Of a DNA stretch of 64,000 bases, positions 8,326-33,128 are shown piece by piece. The notes under the pieces are model-generated. The model did no database searches, had not been told where the DNA came from, and saw only the letters and a program-made list of their open reading frames with translations. The DNA lies in IMG/VR virus record IMGVR_UViG_3300031857_000001; one strand, written 5' to 3'. This stretch comes from a virus (Duplodnaviria; Caudoviricetes). Each line of letters opens with the position of its first letter. Positions within the stretch are counted from its first letter, which is position 1. The position numbers were made by a program, and so were the translations under genes.

Positions 8326-8597
8326 CTGACCAAATCGTAAGTTGCAACCAATGCGAACTTATCATGCTCAAAATTTGACCATTTTAAACTTTCCTCGATT
8401 AAAAAATTGAGACCATCCAACCTACTTTCTTCAAAAAGAGAGATGTCAGTCATAAAAAGTTTACAATCAATCAAATAATGTTTATTAACCGTACAAAATT
8501 TAACATGATTTATAATAATATAGCTGTCTTTACCGTATAAAGCCTCTAAATCTTTGGAAAAAACATAATTTAAGAGGACAGAAAGGCAAGTTTTCAT
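8316..8597 (-). CDS. Hypothetical protein
   Basis: Likely start MKTCLSV at 8597, directly after a minus-strand TATTTAT motif. Confidence 0.6.
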   Translation of the reverse strand: MKTCLSVLLNYVFSKDLEALYGKDSYIIINHVKFCTVNKHYLIDCKLFMTDISLFEESRLDGLNFLIEESLKWSNFEHDKFALVATYDLVSQS

Positions 8598-10366: not shown

Positions 10367-11052
10367 AAATAACACTCATCAGCGATACTCATAACAAACA
10401 CAAACAGGTAACAAGTTCTTTACCTGGCGGTGATTTATTGATTCATGCTGGTGATATATCATCAAGGGGTTATAAGCATGAAATCCAAGAATTCTGTAAG
10501 TGGTTTAACAGTTTGGATAATTATACTGTAAAGGTATTCATCGCTGGAAACCACGACTTTGGATTTCAAACAGAACCTAAAATGGCGAAAGAGATTGTTG
10601 GTTCCTACAAGTGGATTGATTATCTCCAAGATAATTTTTTGGGTTACGGAGTTGATACTGAAAATTATGTAAAAATTTATGGTAGTCCTTGGCAACCTGA
10701 ATTTAATGGTTGGGCGTTTAACCTACCAAAAGATGGGTGGGAACTTAAACAAGCTTGGGATGAAATACCGGATGATATTGATATACTTGTAACTCACGGG
10801 CCAGCATTTGGTTATTTGGATACAATTATGGGTCAGTATGATAATCTTGGATGTGAATTACTGACAAAGAGAATTAAAACAATTAAACCCAAAATTCATG
10901 TCTGCGGACATATACATTCGGGGTATGGTTATGTTTTTGATGGTGATACTCACTTCATTAATGCTTCCGTTTTAGATGAACAGTATCAATACACCCAAAA
11001 ACCACTAACAGTAGAATGGGACCCTGTAACGAATAAGTTGGAGTTTATTTAA
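10363..11052 (+). CDS. Calcineurin-like metallophosphoesterase (MPPED-like)
   Basis: ISDTH, HAGD, IAGNHD, THGP and CGHIH motifs. Confidence 0.93.
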   Translation: MKITLISDTHNKHKQVTSSLPGGDLLIHAGDISSRGYKHEIQEFCKWFNSLDNYTVKVFIAGNHDFGFQTEPKMAKEIVGSYKWIDYLQDNFLGYGVDTENYVKIYGSPWQPEFNGWAFNLPKDGWELKQAWDEIPDDIDILVTHGPAFGYLDTIMGQYDNLGCELLTKRIKTIKPKIHVCGHIHSGYGYVFDGDTHFINASVLDEQYQYTQKPLTVEWDPVTNKLEFI

Positions 11053-11056
11053 TTTG

Positions 11057-11084
11057 AAACCCGTCGAATTTGGCGGGTTTTTTT
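11057..11084 (+). terminator. Intrinsic terminator
   Basis: AAACCCGTC-GAATTT-GGCGGGTTT followed by a T-run. Confidence 0.75.
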
Positions 11085-11147
11085 ATTGGGGTAAAATTAT
11101 AGTAAATCGAAAAATTTTATCAAGAGTTTAATGATATTTATCAGAGT

Positions 11148-12740
11148 ATGGATAGAAAAATCAAAATACTCATTTCGTTGTCATTCGTCATAATGTTGGT
11201 GTTCTTCGTCGTTAAAACTGCGGTTTTAGTTGAACTTACCCCAAGCACAAGATTAACAAGAGGAACAGAATATGTTTGTTTTTTATTCTTTATCCCCGTT
11301 TTTTTCAGTTTGATTAGACACTACATTAAAACTAGTAGATTATATAATAAATTTAAAGAATTTGAGAAGTTTGTTGACACATCTGTATTAGTTAGTAAAG
11401 CCGATAAGAATGGTAAGATAACATATGTTAACAAAAAATTCAGTGAAGTATCTGGATGGAGCTTAGAAGAGGCCATTGGAAAAGACCACAAAATAGTTAA
11501 TTCAGGGTACCACCCCAAAGAGATGTGGCAAGAAATGTATAAAACCACAATCGTAGATAAACAAATTTGGAATAAAGTTGTAACCAATATTTCAAAAGAC
11601 GGACATTTATATTGGGTTGATTCATATATTAAAGCCGAGTTCAGAGGAAATGGAGAACTAAAAGGATTTACATCATTAAGGTATGATGTCTCAGATGTTA
11701 AGAAAAAAGAACTTGAGATTAGAAATAGAATGAATGCTATTAACCAATCCAATGCAGTTATTGAGTTTGATTTAACCGGTACTATAATGTATGCTAACAA
11801 AAATTTCTGTGATGTTATGGGATATGATATGGAAGAAATTACAGGAAAACACCACAGAATATTTTTAACTGAGGATTATTCAAATTCAGTTGAATACAAA
11901 GAATTTTGGGATAAGTTAAAGGGTGGTAATTTCATATCTGCTCAATTTACAAGGATTAAAAAGAATGGGGATGAAATTTGGTTACAAGCCACATATAACC
12001 CAATCTTTGATAATGATAATAAAGTTATCAGAATTATGAAAATAGCGATTGATATTACTGATAAAGTTTTACAATCCCAAGAGATAGAGAAGAAAAACAC
12101 TTATCTGGAACATGCTGCCAAGATATTAAGACACGATATGCACTCAGGTATTAACACTTATATGCCAAGAGGTTTAAGTTCTTTGGAAAGAAGATTGAAA
12201 GTTGAAGATATTGAAAATTTGAAAATCGAGGCTCCGATTAAAATGATTAAGGAGGGTTTAAGACACTCACAAAAGGTTTATAAAGGAGTTTATGAATTTA
12301 CAAATTTGGTTAAAAAAGATGTGGTGTTAAATAAAGCTGAATGTGATTTAAGAGAGATACTAAATGATTACTTATCATCAACGGCTTATCATAGTCAGGT
12401 TATAATTGAAGAGTTACCAACCATAGAAGTTAATGAAGCGTTGTTCTGTACGGCGATAGACAACTTAATTAGAAATGGATTGAAGTATAATGACTCAGAA
12501 TCAAAATTTGTAAAAATATATATGGAAGGTGATAACCTTATAGTCCAAGATAATGGAAGAGGTATTGACCAAGAAGATTTTGACCATTTATCAAAACCAT
12601 ATACAAGAAAAGAAGGACAAAAAGAATCAGGAACCGGACTCGGATTAAACATATGTGTTGCAATATTGCAAGAGCACAAGTTTTTGGTAAGATGTGAGAA
12701 AAATGAGATAGGAACTAAACTGAAAATAAAAATAAAATAA
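11148..12740 (+). CDS. Membrane PAS-PAS sensor histidine kinase
   Basis: Two N-terminal TM segments and two PAS/PAC domains. H-box ILRHDMH, N-box NLIRNGLKY, G1 QDNGRG and G2 GTGLGL. Confidence 0.93.
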   Translation: MDRKIKILISLSFVIMLVFFVVKTAVLVELTPSTRLTRGTEYVCFLFFIPVFFSLIRHYIKTSRLYNKFKEFEKFVDTSVLVSKADKNGKITYVNKKFSEVSGWSLEEAIGKDHKIVNSGYHPKEMWQEMYKTTIVDKQIWNKVVTNISKDGHLYWVDSYIKAEFRGNGELKGFTSLRYDVSDVKKKELEIRNRMNAINQSNAVIEFDLTGTIMYANKNFCDVMGYDMEEITGKHHRIFLTEDYSNSVEYKEFWDKLKGGNFISAQFTRIKKNGDEIWLQATYNPIFDNDNKVIRIMKIAIDITDKVLQSQEIEKKNTYLEHAAKILRHDMHSGINTYMPRGLSSLERRLKVEDIENLKIEAPIKMIKEGLRHSQKVYKGVYEFTNLVKKDVVLNKAECDLREILNDYLSSTAYHSQVIIEELPTIEVNEALFCTAIDNLIRNGLKYNDSESKFVKIYMEGDNLIVQDNGRGIDQEDFDHLSKPYTRKEGQKESGTGLGLNICVAILQEHKFLVRCEKNEIGTKLKIKIK

Positions 12741-28918: not shown

Positions 28919-28944
28919 AAAAGGGTGTCGAGAGACACCTTTTT
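28919..28944. terminator. Bidirectional terminator
   Basis: AAAAGGGTGTC-GAGA-GACACCTTTTT. Confidence 0.8.
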
Positions 28945-28947
28945 GTT

Positions 28948-29439
28948 TTATATGAAGGATTTTCTAAATTCTTCCCATACAAACTCAACTTGAGGATTTA
29001 CAACGTCTGAAAATATTGTCGGTTCATATGGTTTTTTGAGTAATTTCATTCCGGCTTCATCCGGTGTTTTATTGTCCTTTGTTCTGTTACATGAAGAACA
29101 ACAAGTAACAAGATTTAACCAAGTATTTTGTCCACCTCGTGATTTAGGAATAACATGGTCAACAGTTAAATTTCTTTTACTACCACAATAAACACATTGA
29201 TAATCATCCCGCCTAAAAAGTCTATGACGATTAATTTTTAATTTGTGATATCTGAATTTAACATAATTGAAAAGGCGTATAATAAGAGGTCGAACAAATG
29301 ACCTTAAACCTGCCATAATTGGCTGGTCGTGAGACTTTAATATCTCCGCCTTACCCTTATTAACCAAATTAAAACCTTTAAAAACGGTTGTTACGTTAAT
29401 GGGGGTGTAGTCCGAATTTAGTACTAATACCTTTTCCAT
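28948..29439 (-). CDS. HNH endonuclease (McrA-like)
   Basis: VLVLNSDY.P, RDDYQCVYCG...LTVDHVIPKSRGG..W.NLVTCC..CN..K. Confidence 0.9.
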   Translation of the reverse strand: MEKVLVLNSDYTPINVTTVFKGFNLVNKGKAEILKSHDQPIMAGLRSFVRPLIIRLFNYVKFRYHKLKINRHRLFRRDDYQCVYCGSKRNLTVDHVIPKSRGGQNTWLNLVTCCSSCNRTKDNKTPDEAGMKLLKKPYEPTIFSDVVNPQVEFVWEEFRKSFI

Positions 29440-29557
29440 CTATTTATTCAATATCTCAAATATACAAAATTTTAATCACATAAAAAATAACATGTGAAAA
29501 AATAATTTATTTGGTTATTTGGAAAATGTTCGTATATTTGTGGTGTGAATAACATAT

Positions 29558-29840
29558 GTCTCCGTAGCTCAGTAGGATAGAGCAACAGCCTCAAAGGGGG
29601 CGTCTGATTAGAAATAATCAGATGGAACTTCTCGAATTCGGTGAAACCTTCCGAGTAATGTCGATGGTAATACCGAGCCAAACCTCAGAAATGAGGAAGT
29701 GTGTAGAGACTAAGTGGGAAGCACCTAAACAAATTAAGTTGAAGGTGATGATATAGTCCAGACCACAAACCGAAAGGGTAGTGAAAACTATAGTGGTATG
29801 TCTAAGCTGTGGGCCACAGGTTCGAATCCTGTCGGGGATA
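29558..29840 (+). tRNA. tRNA-Arg(UCU) interrupted by a group I intron after U33
   Basis: Exon 1 is 29558-29591 (GTCTCCG..ACAGCCT) and exon 2 is 29801-29840 (TCTAAGCTGT..TTCGAAT..CGGGGATA). Joined, they give a canonical cloverleaf with loop CT-TCT-AA. Confidence 0.92.
29592..29800 (+). mobile_element. Group I self-splicing intron (209 nt, no ORF)
   Basis: The 5' splice site follows U, with P1 GCCU|C paired to GGGGC (U.G wobble), and the intron ends in G. Core elements: P GAATTCGGTGAAA, Q AATACCGAGCC, R GTAGAGACTA and S GATATAGTCC. Confidence 0.9.
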
Positions 29841-30368
29841 CTGGTAACTCAATTGCTCACCGTGAATTTCGCGGTGGCAATTTGAGCACAGTAACATACA
29901 TTTATCCAATTCATCAATTATTACTTGGTTAAATGAGTATATTTTAAGATGTGATAGAGTAAAATCTTTTTCTTCAGGATTCAAATGGTGGAACTCTAAA
30001 GCTCCAATATATTTATCATATCCACATCTTTCACATTTACCCCCCTTATAATCTACCATTTCTTTTTTCAATTTTCTTTGCCTCTCAATTGTTTGCATAT
30101 TTGTACATTGCTTACAATACACTGATGAATTTTCTTTACCCCTTCTACTATAAAATTCAGAAGTATCACAGTCTTTTTTACATCTAGGACAAAATCTAGT
30201 TTCACCATAAACCTTTTTCCCCATTTGTTTAAAAGGTTTATTTGGAAATTCAACATTATGTTTTTTTGCCCAATATCTCACTGTTGTTAGTCCTTTACCT
30301 GTTTCCTTACTTATTTGGTTTAGAGATAAACCACTATTAATTTTCCCAATTAAAAATTCTTTAGTCAT
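29802..30368 (-). CDS. HNH homing endonuclease-like protein (HTH + Zn finger + HNH)
   Basis: N-terminal HTH-like segment, CPRC..C..C, YKGGKCERCGY...ALEFHH...ELDKC.LLCSNCHREIH. The last 13 codons are antisense to the tRNA 3' exon. Confidence 0.85.
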   Translation of the reverse strand: MTKEFLIGKINSGLSLNQISKETGKGLTTVRYWAKKHNVEFPNKPFKQMGKKVYGETRFCPRCKKDCDTSEFYSRRGKENSSVYCKQCTNMQTIERQRKLKKEMVDYKGGKCERCGYDKYIGALEFHHLNPEEKDFTLSHLKIYSFNQVIIDELDKCMLLCSNCHREIHGEQLSYQYPRQDSNLWPTA

Positions 30369-30437
30369 ATGGATAGTTTTTATATAAATATCCATTAAGT
30401 TATTTTTTTATTGGAAATTATTGACTATATTTGTGGT

Positions 30438-30815
30438 ATGAAAAAACTAATCCTAACTTTAGTCCTATCACTTTGGACAATCATTTCATTTTCCCAAGTT
30501 TGGGCAAAGGCCGTCAGTCTAACAATTGGTGTCAGAGATGATGCTTACTCCAAATTTACGTGGGGTGAAACAAAAAGTTTACCCGGAGATATCCTAATTA
30601 AATTTGATGACCAAGAAGTAACAATATATACCGAGGACATTCAATTCTATCAAACATTAAAACCTGAATATTTTACTGAGGATGGTAATGGGTCATATTG
30701 GTTTGCGGTTGATGAAGAAAGAAAAAGATGCAAGCTTTATATGTACAATAAGGGTGGGAATGTTATTATGATTGAATACGACGATGTTTGTATAATTTAT
30801 GGGGTTTTATATTAA
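30438..30815 (+). CDS. Secreted hypothetical protein (leaderless)
   Basis: Signal peptide MKKLILTLVLSLW. ATG lies 4 nt after TATATTTG. Confidence 0.75.
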   Translation: MKKLILTLVLSLWTIISFSQVWAKAVSLTIGVRDDAYSKFTWGETKSLPGDILIKFDDQEVTIYTEDIQFYQTLKPEYFTEDGNGSYWFAVDEERKRCKLYMYNKGGNVIMIEYDDVCIIYGVLY

Positions 30816-31049: not shown

Positions 31050-31718
31050 ATGAAACACACACTTATTATCCTTACAGTTATTACTTTATTTTCATGTAAC
31101 AATGAGCCGACCAAAGTCGTACCTTGGTCTGAGAGCGGAATTCCTGAACTTGAAAGTCTTGGTCGAAAACTCGAAAAAATGCCAAATGTTGACGACACCC
31201 TATCTCAACATTACGTCAAAATCCTTAAAGAAAAGGAATCAAATGAAATTCAACCAAAAGTCGAATCTGCGGTCCGAATTAAGGGGTTAGGTAATTACAA
31301 CCAAAAGGATGTCAACAAAGTTGCGGAATATGTGAACAAGTTTTTTGGTTATAAATGTATAATTGAGGAAGGAGTTCCAACCACATCTAAAATGTATTAT
31401 GGTGGTAGTGATTTGGATGTATCACAATGTATATTTGAACTTAATCGTCACGGTGTTAAAACAATATACGTGACTAATGAAAATGTTGTTAACAAAGGAC
31501 AACAAATTCGTGGGGGTACGTTCTTACGTTGTAATACTGTGATTGTTGAACATACTGATTATGATGAATCAACTGTTTTACACGAAGTTGGACATACTTT
31601 GGGACTTGTTCACTGTGATAACCCAAAATGTTTGATGGCGATTAATAATGACGCCGAGGTAACTATGGATTTTTGTAATAAATGTAAAAAAAGATTAGAA
31701 AATGAAAACATTCGATGA
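31050..31718 (+). CDS. Lipoprotein with archaemetzincin-like (M54-like) Zn protease domain
   Basis: LFSC lipobox and HEVGHTLGLVHCDNPKCLM...FCNKC. Confidence 0.85.
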   Translation: MKHTLIILTVITLFSCNNEPTKVVPWSESGIPELESLGRKLEKMPNVDDTLSQHYVKILKEKESNEIQPKVESAVRIKGLGNYNQKDVNKVAEYVNKFFGYKCIIEEGVPTTSKMYYGGSDLDVSQCIFELNRHGVKTIYVTNENVVNKGQQIRGGTFLRCNTVIVEHTDYDESTVLHEVGHTLGLVHCDNPKCLMAINNDAEVTMDFCNKCKKRLENENIR

Positions 31719-33042: not shown

Positions 33043-33128
33043 GCCCGGATGCTGAAATGGTATACAGTGCAGACTTAAAATCTGCTGAGCAATCGCTCGT
33101 GAGGGTTCGAGTCCCTCTCCGGGTACCA
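33043..33128 (+). tRNA. tRNA-Leu(UAA)
   Basis: GCCCGGA/TCCGGGT acceptor, GCAGA-CT-TAA-AA-TCTGC, long variable arm, encoded CCA. Confidence 0.95.

Follow-up and report, generated by a model that had tools for sequence, protein, structure and literature searches.

At the locus described here, a tRNA-Arg(UCU) gene is interrupted by a group I intron that carries no ORF, and an HNH endonuclease gene lies on either side of it (Table 1). The window, which is the whole stretch of 64,000 nucleotides that was analysed, belongs to a giant freshwater phage, whose host is probably among the freshwater Bacteroidota. In the 321-kb phage genome there are just one group I intron and four HNH-like ORFs. This basic arrangement had been proposed in an earlier note made from the letters of the DNA, and it is borne out by matches to RF00028, by ARAGORN and by Pfam and phrog profiles.

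Table 1. Positions of features at the tRNA-Arg(UCU) locus, numbered from the first nucleotide of the window
Feature	Position	Strand	Basis
HNH-1, HNH_5-type endonuclease, 163 aa	28948-29439	-	PF14279 2.5e-16, PF01844 1.2e-14
TATATTTG box of HNH-1	29457-29464	-	motif position
TATATTTG, putative Bacteroidota-type -7 promoter box, 17 nt 5' of tRNA	29533-29540	+	motif position
Mobile cassette (tRNA leader, tRNA-Arg with intron, HNH-2 and its upstream spacer), ~0.9 kb	29546-30437 (about)	.	
tRNA-Arg(UCU), whole gene with intron	29558-29840	+	ARAGORN
tRNA-Arg(UCU) 5' exon, positions 1-33, last base U33	29558-29591	+	
Group I intron, ORF-less, 209 nt, terminal G29800	29592-29800	+	RF00028
tRNA-Arg(UCU) 3' exon, anticodon UCU to discriminator A73, CCA not encoded	29801-29840	+	
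HNH-2, free-standing HNH endonuclease gene, 197 aa	29802-30395	-	phrog_2255 at 6.6e-39
TATATTTG box at cassette right end, 4 nt ahead of downstream gene ATG (30438)	30426-30433	+	

The intron and its RNA

The Rfam group I model RF00028 matches positions 29582-29782 at 75.6 bits (gathering score 50), and the full model (1-253) is covered. Joining the two exons yields a canonical tRNA-Arg(tct) in ARAGORN, and the same tRNA is called, as i(35,209), when identical contigs are searched with introns allowed. The split falls after U33, which at 29591 stands directly before the 5' splice site. This limit of the 5' exon is backed by the spliced fold and by the intron-less homologue of a related genome (L003), and intron-less homologues align exactly across the splice junction. 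Compensatory double changes among 14 homologues keep 17 of 51 intron pairs, the structure having been predicted on the same alignment. By these features the intron is a predicted self-splicing group I ribozyme.

The metatranscriptomes of two river studies contain contigs in which the intron ends are joined head to tail. One 239-nt contig (X18) runs through 29592-29800 and then 29592-29621, and it fixes both intron ends because its 29800-to-29592 junction is exact. Another of 240 nt (X16; 210 + 30) carries the junction of a 210-nt variant. These contigs fit excised circular intron RNA, although contigs by nature cannot prove an RNA origin, and finding such junctions in river metatranscriptomes suggests that the intron is excised in nature. 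The ribozyme appears functional on the basis of the compensatory changes and these junctions together. Ligated exons of the window allele were not found among the metatranscriptome contigs. There are RNA contigs in which a 5' exon is joined directly to 29801-29837, but these differ from the window at three of the 37 nt and in the anticodon stem, and they represent other intron-less tRNA-Arg genes rather than splicing of the window allele. RNA cover is limited to 29550-29970, is only 1-4x past the tRNA 3' end, and is zero on HNH-1 and on most of HNH-2.

The two flanking nuclease genes

HNH-2 begins with an HTH domain, contains a zinc ribbon and ends with the HNH domain. Its probable start is M10 (30368), for a product of 188 aa, since conservation among homologues begins only there. 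The residues of a beta-beta-alpha-metal fold (HH ... N ... H) and two CxxC pairs of zinc ligands are present, and no variation is seen among 22 homologues at the CxxC...HH...CxxC-H-x3-H residues (C121, C124, H136, H137, C170, N172, C173, H174 and H178). Pfam HNH (PF01844) scores 18.1 bits in hmmscan, where the cut-off is 21.4, and 27.3 bits in a genome search that included neighbouring stretches. Against PDB sequences, the HNH-2 profile gave marginal matches only (McrA, a group II intron maturase and PacI) and no close solved relative, while NCBIfam gave nothing useful on HNH-2 and generic HNH-domain matches for HNH-1.

Exactly as the earlier note described, HNH-2 reads antisense through the tRNA 3' exon and stops 1 nt from the splice site (29800/29801). 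Its tail, ...YPRQDSNLWPTA, is followed by a stop codon at 29802-29804, and the final 12 codons plus stop are the antisense of tRNA positions 35-73. The stop codon itself is the antisense of anticodon-loop bases C35-U36-A37; HNH-2 has no stop codon of its own and therefore borrows this one. Because HNH-2 of intron-less relatives uses the same stop, the 1-nt spacing reflects geometry rather than adaptation to the intron. An HNH-2 transcript would be able to pair with the complementary 3' half of the tRNA. The gene is present in a single copy in the genome.

There is no -7 box within 150 nt of HNH-2, and scanning for sigma-70 promoters gave no excess of sites over shuffled sequence. A late motif that had been placed at 30384-30390 could not be confirmed, as the surrounding 11-mer has 6 matches against 7.5 expected and thus shows no enrichment. 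The TATATTTG box upstream of the tRNA may act as a promoter. The copy at the right end of the cassette probably restores transcription of the downstream gene after convergent insertion of HNH-2: in L003 this gene begins 11 nt past the tRNA without such a box, and the gene at 31050 has the same spacing from box to ATG as the gene at 30438.

The upstream gene, HNH-1, matches phrog_16726 at 4.7e-40. Its product is 92% identical to that of L003 (dS 0.85) and 54-73% identical to those of four other lineages (L027, L028, L031 and L205), where its dS is saturated (1.8-3.0); these identities are like those of the flanks. In three of these four (L028, L031 and L205), HNH-1 is separated from tRNA-Arg by a tRNA-Met and three ORFs. 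HNH-1 thus diverges in step with its flanks and its adjacency is not kept. By these comparisons, HNH-1 is an unrelated resident gene apparently inherited with the flanks, lies outside the mobile cassette and plays no visible part.

Lateral transfer of the tRNA, intron and HNH-2

Homologues of HNH-2 number 1323. Ten of 11 viral loci with HNH-2 relatives adjoin tRNA genes, seven of them lying within tRNA arrays and three next to tRNA-Arg(UCU), the exception being L008, which has no tRNA; tRNA-adjacent relatives also occur in cultured Aeromonas, Bacteroides and Yersinia phages. Judged by these neighbourhoods, HNH-2 is a member of a large phage family with a predicted specialisation on tRNA gene clusters. 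In close homologues, the ...DSN... tail is the antisense of the tRNA T-arm, whereas distant homologues stop just past the HNH motif. HNH-2 is convergent with tRNA-Arg(UCU) and abuts or overlaps its 3' end in 16 lineages, nine with the intron and seven without it. One further sequence, L018 (P0001), ends within the tRNA 3' exon, such that its intron state is not readable. The 3' end of tRNA-Arg(UCU) would therefore appear to be the home site of HNH-2. The recurrence of this position, and the presence of only four HNH-like ORFs and one group I intron in the whole genome, make the arrangement more than chance.

Compared with two diverged lineages (L028 and L031), the window is 92-100% identical within the cassette and 55-78% identical or unalignable outside. 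The edges are sharp, falling on the left near 29546-29550 and on the right at 30439/30440. Similarity to L217/L219, L028, L031 and L027 breaks just past the TATATTTG box upstream of the tRNA, and an indel relative to L003 ends at 30437. The dS of HNH-2 is 0.25 against L028, where the flanks reach 1.9-3.2, and 0.49 against L031, where they are saturated. The closest relative genome, L003 (flank dS 0.67-0.85), has HNH-1 and an intron-less tRNA-Arg and lacks both the intron and HNH-2. A further pair (L016 and L028) has near-isogenic flanks (91-99%) and differing cassettes, that of L016 being intron-less and that of L028 intron-bearing. On this comparative evidence, the tRNA, intron and HNH-2 behave as one laterally moving cassette. 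HNH-2 also shows the population pattern typical of free-standing homing endonucleases, in that it is polymorphic at a fixed site (absent from L003 and present in 16 lineages) and has spread laterally with co-conversion of its flanks (HNH-2 dS 0.25-0.5 versus more than 1.9 for flanks, with sharp block edges).

The proposal that the ORF-less intron is mobilised with its neighbour HNH-2 agrees with this shared transfer, but the two are not obligate partners. Relatives show each of the four possible combinations of the two elements, and the HNH-2 tree requires at least two to three changes of intron state. Co-occurrence, which the earlier note had put forward as a check, is complete in the clade of introns at least 90% identical to that of the window, where all nine lineages carry HNH-2. 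It fails beyond that clade, both in the seven HNH-2 lineages without an intron, from which it follows that the intron is not required for HNH-2 residence, and in at least three lineages that have an intron (86% identical or less) at the same site without HNH-2. In one of the latter (L101), a GIY-YIG gene occupies the HNH-2 flank. Moreover, the tRNA-Leu(UAA) gene of L003 contains an ORF-less intron of the same family (74% identity) that is absent from the window and has no nuclease gene nearby, so such introns can come and go without a linked nuclease.

In four lineages (L214, L217, L044 and L205), the tRNA and intron are 91-99% like those of the window, whereas HNH-2 is just 73-90% identical (dS 1.4-2.4), and similarity breaks sharply at the tRNA 3' end. 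The histories of intron and HNH-2 are therefore not always shared. Simple passive linkage does not explain this pattern, which suggests that the tRNA was broken internally in phages already in possession of HNH-2. Structural constraint could account for part of the close similarity in tRNA and intron.

A scan of viral and metagenome collections for a 15-nt junction pattern gave mostly chance matches (eight of 182 loci were real). The abundance of 117 intron-less tRNAs of the window type is no argument here, as all of them belong to other phage groups.

Proposed trans homing and its alternatives

We lean, with some reserve, towards a mobile cassette that homes in trans by co-conversion as the best-fitting explanation. 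On co-infection, HNH-2 would break the tRNA-Arg region of a rival phage, and repair would copy in HNH-2 and the donor tRNA together with its intron. Having no nuclease of its own, the intron would thereby be mobilised in trans. Population patterns are what point to HNH-2 as the enzyme that would make the break, and to where the break may fall. The model for this explanation is the T4 system of MobE and the nrdB intron/I-TevIII, in which MobE, a gene lacking a promoter of its own, moves the adjacent intron in trans (PMC2790892). There, as here, a free-standing HNH-family gene stands beside a gene holding a group I intron unable to move by itself. Inheritance of the intron follows from gene conversion driven by the nuclease, as would be the case here, and the nuclease gene is promoterless, as HNH-2 appears to be. 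The present locus differs in that the host gene is a tRNA rather than nrdB, the intron holds no ORF remnant, HNH-2 runs convergently to the tRNA with a 39-nt overlap, and HNH-2 is filed by sequence in a different family (phrog_2255).

The alternative that survives best is strict collaborative homing, in which HNH-2 would cut the uninterrupted anticodon region, the intron would split the site and make its carrier immune, and each element would depend on the other. Such systems have been described for F-CphI with the psbA intron of cyanophage S-PM2 and for T3/T7-like phages (PMC3984707, PMC10448857, PMC6083498). In these the nuclease target has been shown to be the intron insertion site, whereas for HNH-2 this site is a candidate target, and the two elements of our locus also occur apart in many relatives, which classical collaborative homing does not predict. 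Besides these precedents in cyanophage psbA and T3/T7-like phages (PMC3984707, PMC10448857), several patterns speak for it. The intron lies 40 bp from HNH-2 and moves with it, and the tract converted relative to L003 comprises the whole tRNA and ~12-45 bp upstream, with nothing beyond HNH-2. At least four different HNH-2 lineages have received the tRNA module with its intron, the breakpoints falling at the ends of the tRNA, and an intron-bearing cassette has replaced an intron-less HNH-2 cassette in the near-isogenic pair, both of which are expected if breaks occur inside the tRNA even where HNH-2 is already present. HNH-2 beside an intron-less tRNA is always found with a different anticodon-stem sequence, except in L017, and none of 105 intron-less tRNAs with a window-type anticodon arm has HNH-2.

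However, the seven HNH-2 lineages that adjoin an intron-less tRNA-Arg(UCU) and the at least three with an intron and no HNH-2 argue against mutual dependence, and the intron-less L017 has the anticodon arm of the intron-bearing L027 and L044. A link between intron and anticodon stem would arise in any case, since pairing with a ...CCU 5' exon is a requirement of the ribozyme. The absence of HNH-2 from the 105 intron-less tRNAs is little informative, given that the phages they come from are unrelated, and complete linkage of tRNA and HNH-2 gives the same patterns without immunity. We therefore regard strict collaborative homing as possible but rather doubtful.

It is unlikely that HNH-2 is kept for a benefit to the phage, through amplification or diversification of the tRNA locus or through antisense regulation of tRNA-Arg, with the intron irrelevant. 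T4-type SegB is reported to amplify tRNA and anti-defence loci, which allows escape from a tRNA-cleaving defence (PMC13096335); the HNH-2 family is very widespread in tRNA clusters, and the HNH-2 transcript would be complementary to the tRNA 3' half. Yet the close relative L003 does without HNH-2, and there are no repeats or extra copies of this single-copy gene to hint at amplification. A phage benefit would in any case be compatible with selfish homing, the two not being mutually exclusive.

Very improbable, finally, is the reading in which intron and HNH-2 are independent co-residents that arrived separately in a tRNA region tolerant of insertions, their similarity owing to purifying selection and ordinary recombination: it accommodates the four combinations, the GIY-YIG gene on the same flank in L101, the nuclease genes in tRNA clusters of many phages and the polymorphic tRNA-Leu intron with no nuclease gene nearby, but HNH-2 occurs in all nine lineages of the closest intron clade, the cassette edges are sharp and recurrent, and the dS of HNH-2 is four- to ten-fold under that of adjacent genes while its non-coding 5' spacer is also 90-92% identical, neither of which is explicable by selection on the protein.

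A further reading, which we offer tentatively and regard as less likely than not, is that the intron serves as a portable immunity element between rival nuclease alleles. By splitting the consensus anticodon region it would let a carrier cassette survive cutting by HNH-2 variants, and intron-less cassettes, even those with their own HNH-2, would be cut and overwritten. Portable immunity would explain why one tRNA and intron module, 91-100% identical, recently came to lie in at least four diverged HNH-2 lineages, and why an intron-less HNH-2 cassette was replaced in a near-isogenic phage background.

The locus can also be compared with other known systems. T4 SegB is a free-standing homing endonuclease among phage tRNA genes that recognises a conserved T-psi-C stem-loop motif and spreads itself and neighbouring tRNA genes into related phages lacking it (PMC2330249). 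HNH-2 is likewise free-standing and embedded among phage tRNA genes, although SegB is a GIY-YIG enzyme and no intron is involved in T4. Group I introns in bacterial tRNA genes, such as Azoarcus tRNA-Ile, cyanobacterial tRNA-Leu(UAA) and tRNA-fMet (PMC3984707, PMC13168695), are like this one small ORF-less ribozymes (~200-250 nt) in the anticodon loop; that of Azoarcus is 205 nt long, with a 40-nt 3' exon and circular intron forms, and is comparable with the intron of the window. Here, in contrast, the host is a phage gene for tRNA-Arg(UCU) and insertion is after U33. Lak megaphages, which are also large phages, have tRNA genes with conserved introns whose presence differs from one variant to another (bioRxiv 10.1101/356790), but these were described as enigmatic, were not assigned to group I and have no neighbouring nuclease implicated.

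The spread of ORF-less group I introns, and the first partnership between an intron and a homing endonuclease, are understood from just two or three systems studied in the laboratory (T4 nrdB/MobE, cyanophage psbA/F-CphI and T3/T7-like phages). Among natural alleles of uncultured giant phages, the locus described here comes in every state, with neither element, nuclease only, intron only, both, or a GIY-YIG gene in the place of the nuclease, and it offers datable transfers, mapped tract edges and evidence of ribozyme activity in rivers and lakes. Its group I intron lies in a phage tRNA gene, a setting not yet seen at the time of a 2014 review, when all known phage introns were in protein-coding genes (PMC3984707). 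The large HNH family that appears specialised on phage tRNA clusters would be the HNH counterpart of SegB. If portable immunity is true, the locus would be a natural snapshot, in a tRNA gene, of the step before a nuclease gene enters an intron.

Recent exchange of a tRNA and nuclease cassette

The phage is represented by a 321,403-bp IMG/VR record with direct terminal repeats, of which the window covers bases 240417-304416. Lake and river metagenomes, among other freshwater ones, contain near-identical DNA, and boxes of the Bacteroidota type (TAnnTTTG) precede genes of the window. The earlier note described an ORF-less intron in a tRNA gene with two HNH genes, one of them overlapping the tRNA in antisense, and this description is accurate. 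The late motif that the note places at 30384-30390 was not confirmed, and the 11-mer around it shows no enrichment (6 matches, 7.5 expected). Rfam reports a single group I intron match in the whole genome (29582-29782; 75.6 bits, gathering score 50), a canonical tRNA-Arg(UCU) results when 29558-29591 and 29801-29840 are joined, which sets the intron bounds, and the downstream gene, HNH-2, matches phrog_2255. Most aligned phage tRNA-Arg(UCU) alleles have a G1-U72 wobble topping the acceptor stem, and most end in TAC with CCA not encoded.

Annotated genes and RNAs of the window
Feature	Position	Strand	Description
HNH-1 (upstream HNH gene)	28948-29439	minus	163 aa; strong HNH_5/HNH match
Group I intron	29592-29800	plus	209 nt; after U33; terminal G; ORF-less
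HNH-2	29802-30395	minus	phrog_2255, 6.6e-39
GOLLD RNA	41796-42189	plus	Rfam RF02032, 298 bits; within the phage's stable-RNA region
tmRNA, phage-encoded	43769-44146	minus	RF00023, 90 bits; no ARAGORN call

Comparison with related phage loci (L-numbers) indicates that the tRNA, with or without its intron, forms with HNH-2 an exchangeable allele that in recent times has swept into several backgrounds. Between the window and L028 or L031, the flanking genes are saturated (synonymous divergence, dS, of 1.9 or more), whereas a block at about 29550-30439 is 92-100% identical with sharp edges on both sides, and HNH-2 has a dS of only 0.25 (L028) or 0.49 (L031). L016 and L028 have flanking genes that are 91-99% identical, but their HNH-2 and tRNA are only 71-87% identical, and the intron is present in one and absent from the other. 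The pair L217 and L219 is similar, with an upstream flank that is common up to the -7 box and divergence beyond. In the nearest genome, L003 (flank dS of 0.67-0.85), HNH-1 is followed by an intron-less tRNA-Arg and, 11 nt on, by the downstream gene. At the right end of the cassette (30426-30437), a TATATTTG box lies 4 nt ahead of the ATG of the downstream gene, and the L003 counterpart (8455-8466) has no such box before that gene. The box probably makes up for blocked read-through from the tRNA promoter, and the cassette seems to bring a substitute for the promoter that it cuts off.

HNH-1, the upstream HNH gene, diverges like its flanks. Its amino acid identity to the window gene (92% in L003; 54-73% in L027, L028, L031 and L205) is in step with that of neighbouring genes, and its dS is 0.85 for L003 and saturated for the other four. 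HNH-1 is preceded by its own -7 box, stands in L003 beside a tRNA lacking both intron and HNH-2, and is separated from tRNA-Arg by 1-2 kb in L028, L031 and L205. Neither recent mobility nor an intron link was seen when divergence and position were compared in these five loci. A G+C-rich hairpin (28924-28939; minus strand in the scan) between HNH-1 and a convergent 560-aa gene looks like a terminator common to both genes, and it overlaps a weak, sub-threshold match to the Bacteroides sRNA BTnc231 (28 bits, where the gathering score is 80).

Activity of the intron ribozyme

Double changes preserve 17 of the 51 predicted intron pairs across 14 homologues, and these, together with river RNA contigs, indicate that the intron ribozyme works. 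A 239-nt river metatranscriptome contig consists of 29592-29800 followed by 29592-29621, with G29800 joined to C29592. It runs once through the 209-nt cycle and then repeats the first 30 nt, which is consistent with the k-1 overlap of the assembler. A 210-nt intron cycle occurs in a second metatranscriptome study. No DNA contig among the more than 25 that were inspected contains the head-to-tail junction, and RNA cover is limited to 29550-29970, with only 1-4x past the tRNA 3' end. These observations fit excised circular intron RNA, a form that the tRNA intron of Azoarcus is known to take (PMC13168695), although contigs by themselves do not prove an RNA origin. In RNA run X17, one contig (record 9) is identical to the 5' exon end and the whole intron (29583-29800) but then runs on into 22 unrelated letters where the 3' exon would be expected. 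A chimera, another 3' context or a product of RNA processing could account for it.

The HNH-2 gene and its overlap with the tRNA

All Cys, His and Asn residues of the zinc-bound HNH motif of HNH-2 are kept in 22 homologues, and the gene probably starts at 30368 (M10) because homologue conservation begins only there. In antisense, its final 12 codons and stop cover tRNA positions 35-73, and C35-U36-A37 read on the opposite strand form the stop codon (29802-29804). Databases hold 1323 relatives; nearly all those of at least 69% identity have a ...Y-x-x-x-DSN... end, which is the antisense of a tRNA T-arm, whereas more distant ones terminate 3-10 residues past the last His. This pattern indicates that the overlap results from the gene's position, flush against a tRNA end, and from its lack of a stop codon of its own. 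Seven loci (L005, L006, L007, L016, L017, L218 and L219) have HNH-2 convergent with an intron-less tRNA-Arg(UCU) and abutting or overlapping its 3' end, and the overlapping tails of L016, L017 and L218 reach about the same tRNA point. The stop was correctly reported as 1 nt from the 3' splice site, but its spacing is thus a matter of geometry rather than an adaptation to the intron.

In uncultured phages, more distant family members are placed within tRNA arrays, frequently after tRNA-Asn; they also lie within tRNA clusters of Aeromonas phage 4_4572, Bacteroides phage DAC15 and Yersinia phage fHe-Yen9-04. To judge from these locations, the HNH family to which HNH-2 belongs has specialised in the tRNA genes of phages. 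Arrays holding relatives of HNH-2 also hold UUA-anticodon tRNAs, called 'tRNA-Stop' by ARAGORN (L015 4257-4570, L014 3836-3908 and L011 672-800), one of which is interrupted by a group I intron of 227 nt (Rfam, 61.5 bits). Suppressor tRNAs are one possible reading of these calls, and wrongly called tRNA-Leu is another.

Intron mobility and the question of immunity

Co-occurrence, which the earlier note put forward as a check, shows that intron and HNH-2 are not obligate partners and that HNH-2 can reside at the tRNA without the intron. All four states exist among the compared loci: both elements (the window, at least 20 identical contigs, L027, L028-L030, L031, L039, L044, L205, L214-L216 and L217), HNH-2 without the intron (the seven loci), the intron without HNH-2 (L165, a 302-kb contig with 85.6% intron identity; L042, L055 and L062, 73%; and L101) and neither (L003 and L004). 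The HNH-2 tree requires at least two to three changes of intron state, and in it L039, with the intron, is sister to L007, without it (support 100/99), far from the window's clade. In L101 (10392-11414), an intron of 192 nt occupies the same tRNA-Arg(UCU) site. A co-oriented 223-aa ORF lies 49 nt past this tRNA region, directly downstream in the place of HNH-2, and extends into the next tRNA-Met; weak GIY-YIG and NUMOD3 matches make it a probable GIY-YIG/NUMOD3 gene, and thus a different nuclease family would occupy the same flank.

Relatives also carry this intron family in different tRNAs, since in L003 it is tRNA-Leu(UAA) (10920-11209) that is split, by a group I intron of 202 nt; this intron shares 74% identity with the tRNA-Arg intron of the window and is almost the same over the final ~25 nt. 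The window's tRNA-Leu (33043-33128) is uninterrupted, and no nuclease gene lies beside tRNA-Leu(UAA) in either genome.

In L214, L217, L044 and L205, tRNA and intron are 91-99% like those of the window but HNH-2 is only 73-90% identical (dS 1.4-2.4), with similarity breaking exactly at the tRNA 3' end. In the identity matrix, intron-less HNH-2 alleles are interleaved among intron-bearing ones. The intron identity of 95-97% exceeds what constraint alone would give, because functional introns at this site differ by 14-27% (L165 and L042), and the exons were converted along with the intron, because the tRNAs of intron-less HNH-2 partners are only 59-77% identical. The pattern points to DNA-level conversion of exons and intron rather than reverse splicing. 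At least four HNH-2 lineages have acquired the intron-bearing tRNA, from which we suggest that breaks fall inside the tRNA, even in phages already carrying HNH-2.

The mechanism that best fits the cassette would be trans homing of the kind demonstrated with T4 MobE, which mobilises the nrdB intron (PMC2790892). Collaborative homing is a stricter variant (PMC3984707, PMC10448857), under which the intron would shield tRNA-Arg from cutting by HNH-2. Although the suggested breaks inside the tRNA favour it, we consider such immunity rather unlikely: in L017, HNH-2 stands beside a tRNA that lacks the intron yet has the same anticodon arm as L027 and L044, and between L003 and the window the related tRNA-Leu intron comes and goes with no nuclease gene nearby. 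The established analogue of the HNH-2 family is T4 SegB, which recognises a T-psi-C stem-loop motif and spreads adjacent tRNA genes (PMC2330249), although SegB is a GIY-YIG and HNH-2 an HNH nuclease.

Phage introns known at the time of a 2014 review were all in protein genes (PMC3984707), and the tRNA introns of Lak megaphages were later termed enigmatic (10.1101/356790). New in the present case are a phage tRNA as the host gene of the intron, a nuclease gene that physically overlaps this tRNA, the HNH family of HNH-2 itself, and a natural allele series with which the immunity question becomes directly testable.
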